Assembly (NCBI GenBank): GCA_963802945.1
Contig: CAWDKY010000029.1
Coordinates: forward strand, 192,001-256,000
Source of the DNA: an uncultured delta proteobacterium
GTDB lineage: Bacteria; Desulfobacterota; RBG-13-43-22
Direction of reading: 5' to 3'
DNA: 64,000 bases
The position numbers and the translations under genes are program-made. A model generated the notes under the pieces. The model was given only the letters and a program-made list of their open reading frames with translations. It had not been told where the DNA came from and searched no databases. Below are positions 1-55,996 of the stretch, one piece after another (positions within the stretch are counted from its first letter, which is position 1; the number at the start of each line of letters is the position of its first letter).

Positions 1-744
1 ACCATTTTCTTTGAGAAATCGATCAAGCTGTTCGCCTTTCGATTCGGCCCGGCCGACGACGGACGCGATATCGCCTATGAGATCAGGAACCGTATGGGAC
101 CAAGCCTGGCTATCGCCCTGCCAGTATTTCTCCTGGGCCTCATCTGCTATATCTCTTTCGCCCTGATGATGGCCTTTTTTCGGGCCACCTACTTGGATTT
201 CTGGGGGGTGGTATTGTGCGTGGCCATGATGTCCATTTCCAGTCTGTTTTATATCATCGGCGGTCAATATCTGTTGAGCAAACTCTGGAATCTGGTGCCG
301 ATTTCCGGGTTCGGCACAGGGATCATGGCCGCCAAATTTCTGATTCTGCCGGTGCTGGTCGGGGTGGTGAGCGGAATCGGCTCCGGCGCCCGCTGGTATC
401 GCACCATCTTTCTTGAAGAGATCGGCAAGGATTATGTGCGCACCGCCAGGGCCAAGGGTCTGTCGGAATGGCGGGTGCTGTACAAGCATGTCCTGCAAAA
501 CGCCATGATCCCCATCCTGACCGGGGCGGTAGTGGTCATTCCGGTTCTTTTTATGGGCAGCCTGATCACCGAATCTTTTTTCGGCATCCCAGGGCTCGGC
601 AGTTATACCATCGATGCCATCAACTCTCAGGATTTTTCGGTGGTCCGGGCCATGGTTTTCCTGGGCTCGGTGCTTTACATCATCGGACTTATTTTGACCG
701 ACATTTCTTATACCTTAGTTGATCCGAGGATTCGATTAGAATGA
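1..744 (+). CDS. Oligopeptide/dipeptide ABC transporter permease (OppB/DppB family), 5'-truncated by the window edge
   Basis: Frame is open from base 1; EAA-loop motif DYVRTARAKGLSEWRVLYKHVL and C-terminal DISYTLVDPRIR typical of OppB. Confidence 0.92.
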   Translation, partial: TIFFEKSIKLFAFRFGPADDGRDIAYEIRNRMGPSLAIALPVFLLGLICYISFALMMAFFRATYLDFWGVVLCVAMMSISSLFYIIGGQYLLSKLWNLVPISGFGTGIMAAKFLILPVLVGVVSGIGSGARWYRTIFLEEIGKDYVRTARAKGLSEWRVLYKHVLQNAMIPILTGAVVVIPVLFMGSLITESFFGIPGLGSYTIDAINSQDFSVVRAMVFLGSVLYIIGLILTDISYTLVDPRIRLE

Positions 745-758
745 AGGATAAAAGAGCA

Positions 759-1168
759 GAATCTAGAATTCAGGAGTCAGAATCCAGAATGAAAAGGCAA
801 CCGTCAAAAAACTTTAGAGACTTAATTGTCTGGCAAAAGGCCCATCAATTTGTTTTGGCCGTTTACCAGTACAGTGAATTATTTCCCAAGAATGAGATTT
901 ACGGATTGACATCACAAACAAGAAGGGCTGCGGTTTCGATCCCTGCGAATATTGTAGAGGGTTTCAAGAAGAAAACAAAACCAGATAAAGTGAGATATTT
1001 CAACATAGCCCAAGGGTCACTTGAAGAATGCCGCTATTATTTAATTTTAGCCCAAGACCTTAATTATGGGGATGCCTTACATCTCATAACAAAACTTGAA
1101 GAAGTGAGCAAATTATTGGAATCCTACATTTCTTCTATTCTGGATTCTGACTCCTGACTTCTGGATTC
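759..1168. repeat. 32-bp inverted repeat of heptamer units enclosing the four-helix-bundle ORF (arms 759-790 and 1137-1168)
   Basis: Left GAATCTAGAATTCAGGAGTCAGAATCCAGAAT vs reverse complement of right arm GAATCCAGAAGTCAGGAGTCAGAATCCAGAAT: 30/32 identical. Confidence 0.93.
789..1157 (+). CDS. Four-helix-bundle protein (23S rRNA IVS-like / Avd-like family)
   Basis: FRDLIVWQKAH...FPKNEIYGLTSQTRRAAVSIPANIVEG...IAQGSLEE signature; alternative in-frame start at 741 overlaps the oppB stop (ATGA). Confidence 0.92.
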   Translation: MKRQPSKNFRDLIVWQKAHQFVLAVYQYSELFPKNEIYGLTSQTRRAAVSIPANIVEGFKKKTKPDKVRYFNIAQGSLEECRYYLILAQDLNYGDALHLITKLEEVSKLLESYISSILDSDS

Positions 1169-1173
1169 GATTT

Positions 1174-2649
1174 ATGGTCTTTTCATTCAAACCCATCATA
1201 CTCTGGACTGATGCTCTGATTGCTGTTTTGATTTTGGCCGGATTGACTTACGGCTGGACGGTATTGAGACACGAACACTTGCGGGCCCCTTGGAAACGGG
1301 TAGTCCGAAACGCAAGCGGCTTGGTGTCCATGATCGTACTGGCCGTGTTTCTGGTGATCGGTTTGCTCGATACCCTGCATTTCCGCCCGGCTATGGAAAC
1401 CCCAAAAAACGGCGAGAAAGCTTATGCGGTTGAGGTCTTAAGCCTTTTGGATGTGATAGTCGGCCGCTTAAGGCAGAATACCGAAAAGACTTATTCCGCC
1501 CCTTTGGCCACCCATCTTTTTTCCAGAGAAACCGTTGAGCTTCCCGACGGCCGGCAGGTGCGGACCTTTCCCCGCCTGGTTTACGGTGGGGCCCATCTGA
1601 AAAATCCCGATCAGGACAAGGGTAGCGATATCGCCAAACGGGGGGCCTTCGGTTTAATCCTGGCCCTGGTGTTATGGTGCCTGGCCGCGTGTGTTTTGCT
1701 TGGGATTCTTGCCCGCCGTCGAAAAATCGGATTGGCCTCATGCCTCAAGGGCGTATTCCGCGGTCAAGAGGAAATCCCCTGGAACGCCGTCTTATGGACC
1801 GTGCTGGGGCTTTTTCTATTGGCTGTGCCCACAACAGTTCTCAGCCTCAAGTATCATGTTTTCGGCACCGACAAGGTGGGGCAAGATGTGCTCTATTTGG
1901 CCTTGAAGAGTATTCGTACCGGGTTGGTCATCGGCACCCTGACCACCCTGGTGATGTTACCCTTTGCGGTTTTGCTCGGGATCATGGCCGGGTATTTCCA
2001 GGGCTGGATTGACGATATCATCCAGTACATCTACACCACCCTGAATTCCATTCCTGCCGTGCTATTGATCGCCGCCGCTGTTTTGATGATCCAGGTTTAC
2101 ATGGACAGCCACCCCGAACTGTTTGAAACCGCCAGCGCCCGGGCCGACCTGCGCCTGTTGTTTTTGTGCCTCATTCTCGGTGTCACCAGTTGGACCGGAC
2201 TGTGCCGCCTGATGCGAGGGGAATCGTTAAAGCTCCGGGAGATGGAATACATACAGGCCGCGCAGGCCTTCGGCGTTTCCGACTTCAAGATCATCATTCG
2301 ACATATCCTGCCCAACGTCATGCACATCGTGCTGATCGCCATCGTCATGGATTTTTCCGGTCTGGTGCTGGCCGAGGCCGTATTGTCCTATGTGGGTGTC
2401 GGCGTCGATCCAACAATGATCAGTTTCGGTACTATGATCAACAGTGCCCGTCTGGAAATGGCCAGGGAGCCGATGGTCTGGTGGTCTCTGTCCGCCGCAT
2501 TCGGCTTTATGTTCCTGCTGGTGTTGTTTGCCAATCTGTTTTCGGACGCTGTGCGGGACGCCTTTGACCCGAGGGTCCAAACTAGGGCCGTACGACTCCA
2601 GCTCTTTAGGAGACGACCTAAACTCATGGAGAAAGAGACGCATCTATGA
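1174..2649 (+). CDS. Oligopeptide ABC transporter permease (OppC/DppC family, long N-terminus)
   Basis: HVFGTDKVGQDV, EYIQAAQAFGVS, ILPNVMH, FSDAVRDAFDPR motifs. Confidence 0.92.
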   Translation: MVFSFKPIILWTDALIAVLILAGLTYGWTVLRHEHLRAPWKRVVRNASGLVSMIVLAVFLVIGLLDTLHFRPAMETPKNGEKAYAVEVLSLLDVIVGRLRQNTEKTYSAPLATHLFSRETVELPDGRQVRTFPRLVYGGAHLKNPDQDKGSDIAKRGAFGLILALVLWCLAACVLLGILARRRKIGLASCLKGVFRGQEEIPWNAVLWTVLGLFLLAVPTTVLSLKYHVFGTDKVGQDVLYLALKSIRTGLVIGTLTTLVMLPFAVLLGIMAGYFQGWIDDIIQYIYTTLNSIPAVLLIAAAVLMIQVYMDSHPELFETASARADLRLLFLCLILGVTSWTGLCRLMRGESLKLREMEYIQAAQAFGVSDFKIIIRHILPNVMHIVLIAIVMDFSGLVLAEAVLSYVGVGVDPTMISFGTMINSARLEMAREPMVWWSLSAAFGFMFLLVLFANLFSDAVRDAFDPRVQTRAVRLQLFRRRPKLMEKETHL

Positions 2650-3713
2650 CCGCGCCGTTACTTAAAATCGATCACCTGATCACCCGGTTGATCACGGACA
2701 ACGGTGTGGTTCGGGCCGTGGACGGCCTGTCGCTGTCCATTAATCCAGGGGAGACCTTCGCCCTGCTGGGCGAATCGGGTTGCGGCAAGTCCATGACCGC
2801 TCTTTCCATTATGCGTCTTTTGCCTGAGGCAGGCCTTATCCTTGACGGCAGCATTCATTTGAACGGCCGTGATCTTTTAACCCTGTCGGAATTGGAAATG
2901 CGTAACGTCCGAGGCAGACGGATCGGTATGATTTTCCAGGAGCCGATGCTGAGCCTGAATCCGGTCATGACTATCGGGAACCAGGTGGCGGAAATTCTCA
3001 TTCAACACCTCAAACTGCCGGGCCAGGAGGCCATGAAACGCGCTATGGCCATGCTCGAGGCGGTGGGAATTCCCGATGCGGCCCGACGCAGCGGCTATTA
3101 TCCCTTCCAATTTTCCGGAGGCATGAAACAGCGGGTGATGATCGCTATGGCCTTGGCCTGTGAGCCAGCCCTTTTGATCGCCGATGAACCCACTACGGCC
3201 CTGGATGTTACGATTCAAGCCCAGGTCCTCGATTTGTTGCGGCAAATGCAAAAGCGCAGCCGCATGTCGATATTGCTTATCACCCATGATCTTGGGGTGG
3301 TTTCGGAAATGGCCCACCAGGTGGCGGTGATGTATGCCGGCGAGGTGGTGGAAACGGCCGACCGCAAGCGTTTCTTCGACAGCCCGGCCCATCCTTATTC
3401 AAGAAAACTCTTTGAATCTCTGCCCATGCGGAATAAGCGTGGCCGGGCCTTGGCCATGATCAAAGGCAGCGTACCTCCCCTTACCCAAGAATTTTCAGGC
3501 TGTCGCTTTGTAGAACGTTGCGATTTTGGTTGGGATCGTTGTCTTTATCAGGTGCCTCGCTGGAACGAATGGAACCCGGGTCGCTTTGTGAGATGCCATC
3601 TTTATGATGCGGAGGTGAGGGATGAGGGACGAGGGACGAGAGATGAATTTAAGCTCGGACAAGGCCATATTGCTTCAAAAGGCCAAGTTCCAAGCGAGGT
3701 TCTATTCCTCTAA
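2646..3713 (+). CDS. Oligopeptide ABC transporter ATPase (OppD/DppD)
   Basis: Walker [27 protein letters not shown]-terminal GCRFVERC...VRCHLY. Confidence 0.92.
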
Positions 3714-4706
3714 ATCGAGTTCAAACCTTCTGACAGTGGAAGATTTACGGATCCACTTTCCAATCCGTAAAGGTCTCCTGAAACGTACAGTGGGGTCCAT
3801 CAAGGCCGTGGACGGGGTATCCCTTTCGATTCCCTTCGGCAGGACCCTGGCCCTGGTGGGCGAATCCGGCTGCGGCAAAACTACTCTGGGCAAGGGTATC
3901 TTGCGCCTCATCCCTTTAACCGGCGGTTCTGTTCTGTTTCAAGGAAAAGATATTTCGTCACTGTCGTCCGCTGAACTAAGACCTTTGCGCCGGGAGTTTC
4001 AGTTCATCTTCCAAGACCCTTATGCCTCGCTTAATCCCCGCCTGCGAATTGCGGAAATCATCGAAGAGGGTATGGCCGCCCTGAGAATCGGTACCGGGGA
4101 AATGGAGATCGAATGGCGCGTATCGACAGCTTGCTTACGAGGTGGGTCTGTCTGGGGCGATCAAATTTCGTTATCCCCATGAGTTCTCGGGCGGGCAACG
4201 TCAGCGTATTGCCATCGCCCGCGTCCTGTCTGTGAACCCTAAACTCATCATTTGCGACGAGCCGACCAGTGCGCTGGATATCTCAGTACAAGCCCAGATC
4301 CTGAATTTGCTCAAAGAACTGCAAGACAGGCACGGCCTGGCCTATCTATTCATCACTCACAATATTTCCGTAGTCGAGTTTCTGGCCCATGAAGTGGCAG
4401 TGATGTATCTGGGGCGCATTGTCGAGCGGGGAACGGTGGATGAGATCCTGGACCATCCACAGCATCCTTATACCAGGGCGCTCCTGTCGGCCGTACCGGT
4501 CATAGATCCGGATACCCATCGGGAGGTGATTCGGCTTCAAGGGGACTTGCCGTCCCCGGCTGATCCCGCCGGCCGGCTGCCATTTCCATCCCCGTTGCCC
4601 CGAGGTCATGCCGAAATGCAAAGTGATCTATCCGGCCCAAAGCCGTTTCAACACCACCCATTCCGTCCACTGCCATCTATACGAGTCTTTTTATAAAGCC
4701 CTTTGA
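3622..4706 (+). CDS. Oligopeptide ABC transporter ATPase (OppF/DppF), read across about three apparent frameshifts
   Basis: Pieces 3622-4182 (GESGCGKT) and 4142-4696 (YPHEFSGGQRQR, CDEPTSALD); correcting indels near 4100, 4140 and 4566 restores GCHFHPRC...VHCHLY and a stop at 4704-4706. Confidence 0.8.
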
Positions 4707-12511: not shown

Positions 12512-12675
12512 GATGCTGGATACTGGATAACCCCAAAACCGATATTAGATACTTGATAACCTAAAAAACTGAGATTGGATACTGGATAAAGATGAATCTC
12601 TGTATCGATTATCAAGAATCCAACATCCAGTATCCAGAATCCAGTATCGGCCGTTTGATCGAGCATCCAGTATCT
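12512..12675. repeat. Heptamer (GATACTG / CAGTATC) inverted arrays; left arm arranged as three ~30-bp tandem units
   Basis: GATGCTGGATACTGGATAA-like units at 12512, 12541, 12571; ATCCAGTATCCAGAATCCAGTATC at about 12625-12648. Confidence 0.8.
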
Positions 12676-46781: not shown

Positions 46782-46860
46782 TCGAAGGATTCGAGGATTC
46801 AAGGGGCCAAGGATTCAAGGGAAAGGCGTGGAGGTAAAACCACTCGAACCCTCGAATCCT
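46782..46860. repeat. Octamer inverted arrays
   Basis: TCGAAGGA-TTCGAGGA-TTCAAGGG-GCCAAGGA-TTCAAGGG opposite CACTCGAA-CCCTCGAA-TCCT. Confidence 0.75.
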
Positions 46861-55894: not shown

Positions 55895-55975
55895 GAATTC
55901 AGAAGCCAGAAGTCAGAAGAGAATCCCATCCCTTTTCCCATTTCTTCTGAATTCTGGATTCTGAATCCTGGATTC
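55895..55975. repeat. ORF-less heptamer inverted repeat of the same family as 759-1168, directly upstream of ftsH
   Basis: AATTCAGAAGCCAGAAGTCAGAAGA vs reverse complement of 55943-55967 GATTCAGAATCCAGAATTCAGAAGA (22/25), 22-nt loop. Confidence 0.85.
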
Positions 55976-55996
55976 TATCTTTAATGGAATACCTTT

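Follow-up and report, generated by a model that had tools for sequence, protein, structure and literature searches.

Tandem heptamer arrays are found in the intergenic regions of operons in heterocystous cyanobacteria, where they are called short tandemly repeated repetitive (STRR) sequences; to our knowledge, these are defined as repeats without an associated gene. In Geobacter metallireducens, paired tandem hepta- and octanucleotides have been described as 'global regulator binding sites' (Aklujkar et al., 2009; PMC2700814), and neither the main text nor the 12 of 19 supplementary files searched link these sites to a four-helix-bundle or S23 gene. Heptamers of this sort are also found in rRNA. 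In the portion of PMC4990558 considered here, the intervening sequence (IVS) in the 23S rRNA of Coxiella burnetii has three tandem heptamers before the ATG of the S23p gene, within a 28-bp stem whose first repeat is the site of RNase III cutting in vitro. The number of units varies between strains, one strain has a 176-bp deletion in the open reading frame (ORF), the GC content is low and the authors conclude that the IVS protein is probably not made. Here we describe a 412-base unit (757-1168) that carries a four-helix-bundle gene and separates two permease genes in a transporter operon of an uncultured delta proteobacterium (Desulfobacterota; RBG-13-43-22). All positions refer to the window, the whole stretch of 64,000 nt analysed (assembly GCA_963802945.1, contig CAWDKY010000029.1, 192,001-256,000 of the forward strand). 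We think it probable that the unit is a promoter-less gene cassette, mobile over evolutionary time and built like an ORF-bearing 23S rRNA IVS.

The cassette is bounded by inverted arrays of heptamers (Table 1). The complementary parts of its arms (759-790 and 1137-1168) are 32 nt each, lie 346 nt apart and match at 30 of 32 positions (94%). The two exceptions are T764 opposite G1163, which is a U-G wobble, and T769 opposite C1158, which is a true mismatch (U:C). Tandem Repeats Finder (TRF) gives a period of 7 and 4.9 copies for the left array. Gene and arms are interlocked: the ATG (789-791) and an AGGAG motif (772-776) are inside the left arm, whose last heptamer supplies the ATG, and the TGA (1155-1157) is inside the right arm, which holds the final codons of the ORF. 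The ATG of the downstream permease gene (1174) follows 6 nt past the right arm and 16 nt past the ORF stop. The GC content of the cassette is 0.37-0.39 as against 0.51-0.59 in the flanks. A preliminary description of this locus had reported the 30/32 complementarity with one G-U pair, the construction of the arms from 7-nt units and the placement of ATG, TGA and AGGAG within them, and the repeat search, TRF and the sequence agree with it on all three. It had also named the flanking genes oppB and oppC. Both products belong to BPD_transp_1 and are of the Opp/Dpp/Nik kind, but no NCBIfam equivalog cut-off is reached and the label holds at the level of the family only.

Folding of 735-1180 as RNA pairs the arms, as the preliminary description had expected, in both the minimum free energy and the centroid structure (10 bp, one unpaired base, 22 bp). 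The fold energy is -131.6 kcal/mol compared with -97.3 +/- 6.1 for shuffled sequences (z = -5.6) and none of 100 shuffles is as stable. A search of 600-1400 against Rfam for known RNA families gave a single match at chance level (E = 0.93). In a search for RNA reads from 400-1600, each of the 22 runs listed contains less than a tenth of the words of this segment.

Table 1. Features of the cassette and its flanks, in window coordinates
Feature	Position	Strand	Basis
Upstream ABC permease gene, 3' part (Opp/Dpp/Nik-type 'B'), TGA stop at 742-744	1..744	+	PF00528 2.5e-32; best NCBIfam matches Opp3B and Opp2B, both below cut-off
Purine-rich leader of 12 nt, from permease stop to first heptamer	745..756	+	Sequence
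Left arm, five heptamers (CAGAATC TAGAATT CAGGAGT CAGAATC CAGAATG)	757..791	+	Repeats, fold, TRF
Four-helix-bundle gene, 122 aa plus stop (PF05635 / TIGR02436)	789..1157	+	Open frame, profile matches
Right arm, inverted heptamers (ATTCTGG ATTCTGA CTCCTGA CTTCTGG ATTC)	1137..1168	+	Repeats, fold
Downstream ABC permease gene ('C' permease)	1174..2649	+	PF00528 3.3e-25; best NCBIfam match Opp4C, below cut-off

The ORF product matches PF05635 with 122.4 bits (cut-off 33.8) over profile positions 1-105 of 106, and TIGR02436 with 115.4 bits (cut-off 24). Its relatives in the PDB are 2gsc_A (9.1e-18) and 2rld_A (5e-4), each from an entry with five chains. No family of the PADLOC defence-system models matches at E <= 0.01, and tblastn finds no match to the gene among 50,697 phage records. 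In the part of PMC8491059 considered here, PF05635 appears solely as a table row. The ratio of nonsynonymous to synonymous change (dN/dS) is 0.058 between the window ORF and the copy in one congener (G010), and 0.07-0.12 among the copies of another type of cassette, L001, which has 8-mer arms. Judged by these ratios, the four-helix-bundle protein is under purifying selection.

The preliminary description had put forward the flanks of other family members as a check on this packaging, and inverted arrays are present at most of them. There are six PF05635 matches in the organism's own genome, and at five of them inverted 7- or 8-nt arrays surround the gene, with a different unit each time: CAGAATC-type in the window, the 8-mer AAGGATTC, GGTTCAN, GGATRCT and CGAATAT. 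One of these five genes is frameshifted. The sixth match is weak, lies in a 250-aa protein and has no arms. A scan of species genomes with a two-sequence query alignment gave 80 loci from many phyla (Acidobacteriota, Planctomycetota, Patescibacteria, Bacteroidota, cyanobacteria, ANME-1 archaea and others). The 76 with at least 120 nt on each side were scored by the best ungapped inverted match between the two flanks, and four were dropped. A score of at least 12 is reached by 64 of the 76 (37 with period 7, 25 with period 8 and two unclear; median arm 27 nt). The same threshold is reached by 0/76 shuffled flanks, 0/68 flanks displaced by 320 nt, 7/76 direct instead of inverted comparisons and 40/228 cross-locus comparisons, the last because some units are common to several loci. 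All 14 genomes of the genus have PF05635 matches (4-17 each, 119 in total); 27 of these loci were fetched, 26 were usable and 22 score at least 12, with very varied units. An inverted-array bracket is thus the normal packaging of the PF05635 family across bacteria. The two arms of a cassette are always complementary to each other, while the units differ freely between cassettes. Protein pairs with at least 60% identity have units that match within one difference in 186 of 288 cases, as against 15 of 1575 for pairs below 60%.

The cassettes are mostly in the sense of their neighbours. Neighbours were called crudely, as the longest open frame (at least 90 codons) in each 700-nt flank, which left 69 loci after seven with short flanks were dropped. 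The gene is sense to both neighbours at 48 of these and antisense to both at two; the remainder are mixed (10 and 6) or undecided (3). All five cassettes in the organism's own genome lie 3' of a co-oriented gene: guaB (with guaA next), gspF (with a pseudopilin gene next), the permease gene, and the genes of a LuxR-type regulator and a DegT aminotransferase.

Homology between the window and cassette copies elsewhere covers 758-1168 only and ends at the outer ends of the arms. The L001-type cassette (~80% identical) is in five different gene contexts in five congeners. The copies in G013 and G009 (L139 and L140) share a 495-nt block that is identical at 483 of 495 positions and stands in unrelated flanking DNA. 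In the 8-mer-armed subfamily the mobile block reaches about 30-37 nt past each arm. Within the 495-nt block there is one hairpin in the leader (CTCATC...GATGAG) and one in the trailer (TCTCCCAA...TTGGGAGA). Relatives with 68-72% identity are on cyanobacterial plasmids, 13 of 26 of which are predicted to be conjugative. One of these, the conjugative plasmid pNPUN02 of Nostoc punctiforme, has a 69% identical gene with CAGGAGT/CAGAAGT arms in the same stop-arm-ATG ... arm-ATG layout as the window. About 30 of the 119 matches in the genus are fragments or carry stops (counted by hand from the table), and ten more are partial and of a longer subfamily. The cassette encodes no recombinase.

The permease junction itself gives the clearest view of how the cassette comes and goes. 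A DNA search was made of 40 relatives and the junction was extracted from 13 genomes of the same genus. In G001 the permease stop TAG overlaps the start GTG of the next gene and there is no spacer, which is an empty site of the kind the preliminary description had suggested looking for. The organism's own genome (G000) and G010 have the full cassette, and in G011 and G006 the 3' half of the ORF is deleted with different breakpoints. The other junctions hold something else: a short hairpin of a different heptamer (G012), arrays on one side only, built from a further unit and lacking a clear complementary partner (G003, G009, G013 and G007), remnant arrays with an unrelated small repeat as a further insert (G005 and G008) or an unrelated palindrome (G002). 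The leader at 745-756 is retained by the three congeners with the cassette at this junction, and the empty site lacks it. Because G001 is empty at the same junction, the cassette is an insertion, and it is in the sense orientation. The series of empty, full, half-deleted and replaced sites among congeners also means that the junction is a hot spot for such arrays and that the gene-bearing form decays in place. Taken together, the empty site, the homology that is bounded by the arm ends and the near-identical units at unrelated sites uphold the earlier proposal of a self-contained cassette. Of the three outcomes that the preliminary description had named as counting against it, none was seen in so far as tests could be made.

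Synonymous divergence (pS) between G000 and G010 or G011 is 0.64-0.67 in the ORF and 0.26-0.34 in the two flanking genes, and the arms are nearly unchanged. The four ORFs at the junction form a star, with 75-79% mutual identity whatever the distance between their hosts. The excess of synonymous divergence points to cargo replacement among cassettes with like arms, or else to faster mutation of this AT-rich gene. There is no target-site duplication at the junction, nor at the 495-nt block of G013 and G009. An exact 10-nt direct repeat, GGATTCGATT, does flank the cassette (728-737 and 1163-1172), but it was rejected as a target-site duplication: its left copy is conserved permease coding sequence that is also there at the empty site. 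The conserved C-terminal permease codons resemble the heptamer unit, which might matter for targeting or for seeding of the array.

In the explanation we favour, the cassette would be transcribed solely within the operon mRNA. On this transcript the arms would form a helix of 10 + 22 bp that buries the AGGAG and AUG of the cassette and ends 6 nt before the next cistron's start codon. The helix might be cut by RNase III, as in the rRNA IVS, or be opened by translating ribosomes, the ORF stop being within the right arm and 16 nt short of the next ATG. By either route the operon would tolerate the insert. The protein, as a relative of pentameric nucleic-acid-associated four-helix bundles, may act on nucleic acid and most plausibly on its own repeat arms. 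An RNA role is favoured by the sense bias, the fold, the Coxiella homologue and the presence of an RNase III gene (rnc) in the organism's own genome (212.8 bits, cut-off 166.25), as well as by an IVS in helix 45 of its 23S rRNA, albeit one that lacks an ORF and heptamers. Cleavage of this particular stem by RNase III is suggested by analogy, and we can only conjecture that the protein binds its own 7-mers.

Several observations weigh against this explanation. Arm mismatches at 72 loci comprise 110 G:U, 114 A:C and 225 others, so there is no preference for wobble on the sense RNA. The lack of a G:U excess is predicted by complementarity at the level of DNA or by neutral decay and is not usual for a selected RNA helix; the test is a weak one because many mismatches stem from mixed unit variants and not from point changes. 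Close copies at the junction differ by unit changes without compensation. The strong purifying selection on the window gene fits badly with a Coxiella protein which, in the portion of that paper considered (PMC4990558), is judged probably not to be made. Finally, window-family arms also occur without a gene, both as hairpins and as single arms inside a conserved repeat of ~130 nt, and no remnant of the ORF was detected in the loops of gene-less hairpins by profile hidden Markov model (HMM), nor, in 20 such loops of the organism's own genome, by blastn beyond what shuffled sequences give.

The gene-less arrays are numerous. TRF finds 337 period-7 arrays in the assembly (4.37 Mb), and at one score threshold there are 213 arrays with period 7, 92 with period 8, six with period 6 and 24 with period 9. 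The arm units of the genome's four heptamer-armed cassettes make up four of its seven commonest heptamer classes; the most abundant class (AGTTCGG type, 25 arrays) lacks a cassette in this assembly but has one in a congener. A direct scan of the assembly gives 51 non-redundant inverted repeats with periodic arms, the loops of which are mostly 6-100 nt. For the arm family of the window, matching by a loose pattern yields 86 arrays, along with 21 hairpins whose loops are 14-75 nt long, and a strict pattern finds 52 arrays, of which 28 have a partner within 500 nt and 24 do not. The gene-less hairpins have loops that show no relation to one another or to the ORF. Loops in the range 346-467 nt contain four-helix-bundle genes. 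The two remaining long ones are taken up by another repeat, or by an ordinary gene with a separate hairpin on each side, and no other gene family was found in comparable loops of this genome. Because its arm family recurs dozens of times without a gene, the hairpin is not the private packaging of the window ORF, and the arms have an existence apart from it. The purine-first form is seen in 26 of 28 gene-less and 52 of 64 gene-bearing hairpins. An attempt to read the strand of gene-less hairpins from arm composition relative to their neighbours was abandoned as invalid, since an inverted repeat is identical on both strands.

About a dozen solo arms of the window family are part of the ~130-nt composite repeat (for example at C16:106284, C16:272497, C16:325821, C15:28501 and C30:230676). 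This repeat, with a GC-rich hairpin to one side and a closing stem rich in A/T, may be a small RNA or another non-autonomous element.

The abundance of gene-less arrays could mean that the arms work as DNA. The tandem units would then resemble iterons, with an oligomeric protein (the four-helix-bundle protein itself or one of the host nucleoid) binding them in double-stranded DNA, and would act as regulatory, architectural or recombination sites with the RNA hairpin as a by-product. We regard this as possible but unlikely. It would account for the absence of a G:U excess over A:C in the arms, for the hundreds of gene-less arrays with their preference for period 7 over period 6 (213 vs 6), for the single unpaired arms and for the way the protein clade goes with the unit type (186/288 vs 15/1575 pairs). 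The paired sets of five heptanucleotides in G. metallireducens with the consensus MTYCTGA have likewise been proposed, in the parts of PMC2700814 considered, to be bound by unidentified global regulators such as IHF/HU. However, a model of DNA sites does not require the strong sense bias of the ORF (48 vs 2), and the arms are always complementary within a cassette while the units vary between cassettes. The covariation of protein and unit is equally expected from co-inheritance of one cassette, and the only homologous element to have been studied is processed by RNase III in vitro, as described in the portion of PMC4990558 considered.

A broader proposal would make the PF05635 proteins sequence-specific partners of both their own arms and the gene-less arrays of like unit. 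The cassettes would be the autonomous members of array families of the STRR type or of the Geobacter type, the protein would make arrays, keep them alike or move them in trans, and cargo would be exchanged between like-armed hairpins. Such exchange would explain the excess synonymous divergence at one site. The proposal gains from the fact that four of the seven commonest heptamer families are cassette arm units and that protein clades track units across phyla. Against it, the AGTTCGG type is the most numerous and yet has no cassette in the assembly, and co-inheritance alone explains the link between clade and unit. We therefore put it forward with little confidence.

Exchange of cargo might also occur without any partnership. 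The array hairpins would in this case be a host or independent repeat class that serves as a safe harbour, and the gene would be mere cargo, swapped by homologous recombination in the arms and with a function unrelated to them. The single gene-bearing hairpin of the window family is far outnumbered by gene-less ones (the loose pattern gives 86 arrays and 21 pairs, the strict pattern 52 arrays), and the unrelated loops, the different array families at the junction across congeners and the absence of a target-site duplication at the junction and at the G013/G009 block all fit such a class. The synonymous divergence of the ORF, which is two to three times that of the flanks beside nearly identical arms, and the star of ORFs at one site regardless of host distance would fit exchange. 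Nevertheless, we think this account quite improbable: nearly all PF05635 members sampled are bracketed, no other gene family is in comparable loops of the organism's own genome, protein clades track unit types across phyla, and the excess synonymous divergence could equally arise if a foreign, AT-rich gene mutates faster or has weak codon bias.

Lastly, the idea that the ORF is the accessory gene avd of a diversity-generating retroelement (DGR), or another partner of a reverse transcriptase, draws on a four-helix-bundle fold class in common with Avd and on distant similarity to it (bAvd PF22296, 25.8 bits; NF033474, 27.8 bits; PHROG 'Avd protein of DGR', 35.1 bits), but it is almost certainly wrong and was rejected, as both curated cut-offs are missed (40 and 80 bits, respectively), the gene sits between permease genes, and no reverse transcriptase occurs nearby or, by RVT_1 match, anywhere in the assembly (100% complete by marker genes, 72 contigs).

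Other arrays lie elsewhere in the window. There is a gene-less hairpin at 55900-55976, in which CAGAAGC-type units are followed by a loop of 22-25 nt (22 by unit pattern, 25 by TRF) and TTCTGAA-type units. Positions 46785-46860 and 12517-12648 hold an 8-mer array of AAGGATTC with an inverted partner and GGATACT-type heptamer arrays beside a 30-nt period; two other cassettes of the genome have these units in their arms. At 3616-3646 there is a one-sided GAGGGAY heptamer array that ends at an in-frame ATG (3643), ~20 nt inside the second of two ATPase ORFs (3622-4182). The first ATPase ORF reads through this array, so its C-terminal residues are encoded by the repeat. A different small repeat, with ends of the kind GTCATTCC...GGAATCCAG / CTGGATTCC...GGAATGAC, seems to prefer hairpin loops. 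It is nested in the loops of heptamer hairpins, at the permease junction of G005 and G008 and in the loop of the 23S helix-45 IVS (C16:240174-240616, C39:54724-54985, C29:189318-189539, C53:28256-28456; L010, L011; L136:3200-3560).

In summary, the window cassette is a real, typical and intact member of a barely described class of cassettes. We found no paper that links pairs of heptamer arrays to PF05635 genes outside rRNA, in a search that covered few subscription journals. Three loose ends may be one: the ORF-bearing rRNA IVSs; PF05635, a very large family annotated as 'four helix bundle protein' or 'S23 ribosomal protein' that has no assigned function; and the enigmatic tandem heptamer arrays that abound between genes in cyanobacteria, in Geobacter and in the uncultured deltaproteobacterial lineage of the window. 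If the arms are RNase III sites, cassettes would cut operon mRNAs between cistrons in many phyla, an effect that operon models and transcriptome annotation ignore. Should the protein recognise its own repeats, it would amount to a small and programmable repeat-binding module. The window on its own is ordinary and its value lies in an unusually complete series of orthologous sites (empty, full, half-deleted and replaced). To this series the locus adds the count of orientations, the negative wobble test, the excess synonymous divergence, the shared 495-nt block and the link to plasmids.

The cassette resembles several known kinds of element in part. Like an integron gene cassette, it is a single promoter-less ORF that needs transcription from outside and is bounded by foldable sequence; unlike one, it has no integrase and no attC at one end only, and heptamer cassettes are scattered singly and not stacked at a platform. 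Miniature inverted-repeat transposable elements (MITEs), repetitive extragenic palindromic (REP) sequences and bacterial interspersed mosaic elements (BIMEs) are also short, multi-copy and intergenic, with terminal inverted repeats that are conserved within a genome and with gene-less forms in excess of gene-bearing ones. The cassette differs from these in that it lacks a target-site duplication, a transposase and a gene like that of the REP-associated tyrosine transposase (RAYT), its arms are tandem arrays with a unit that varies by family, and the inner sequences of the gene-less copies are mutually unrelated. Deletion of the ORF, as in the internal deletion that yields MITEs, is under way in G011 and G006, yet the 20 gene-less loops match the ORF no better than shuffles do. 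The STRR sequences are brought closer by the cassette genes on plasmids of Nostoc and other cyanobacteria, which are 69-72% identical to that of the window and have window-type heptamer arms. The Geobacter sites, in the parts of PMC2700814 considered, are inverted pairs of three to five tandem 7-9-nt units with variable spacing between operon genes such as proB and proA, and the consensus of one class, MTYCTGA, is the unit of the window's right arm; the difference is that they are described as protein-binding sites on DNA.

The organism's own 23S rRNA gene (on C65) is 3290 nt long compared with a model of 2925 positions and has a helix-45 IVS (L136:3236-3525). This IVS has 27-nt arms that are 89% complementary and a 236-nt loop, but no ORF and no heptamers, and it is an element distinct from the cassette. 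The comparison with the ORF-bearing 23S rRNA IVSs (those in helix 45 of Coxiella, with S23p, and in Leptospira) is closer, as far as the portions of the sources considered describe them. The window cassette is in an operon mRNA between permease genes and not in an rRNA helix, its gene is under clear purifying selection whereas the Coxiella ORF is judged to be decaying and untranslated, and cutting by RNase III, which has been shown in vitro for Coxiella, is proposed for the window by analogy. In other respects the two are alike. Both have a PF05635-family gene in the loop in the sense orientation, terminal inverted repeats with a stem of ~28-32 bp, tandem heptamers directly before the ATG, a GC content that is low relative to the host, and ORF deletions and changes of unit number among relatives. 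The long terminal stem around a sense ORF, which marks an IVS, is thus present in the window cassette.

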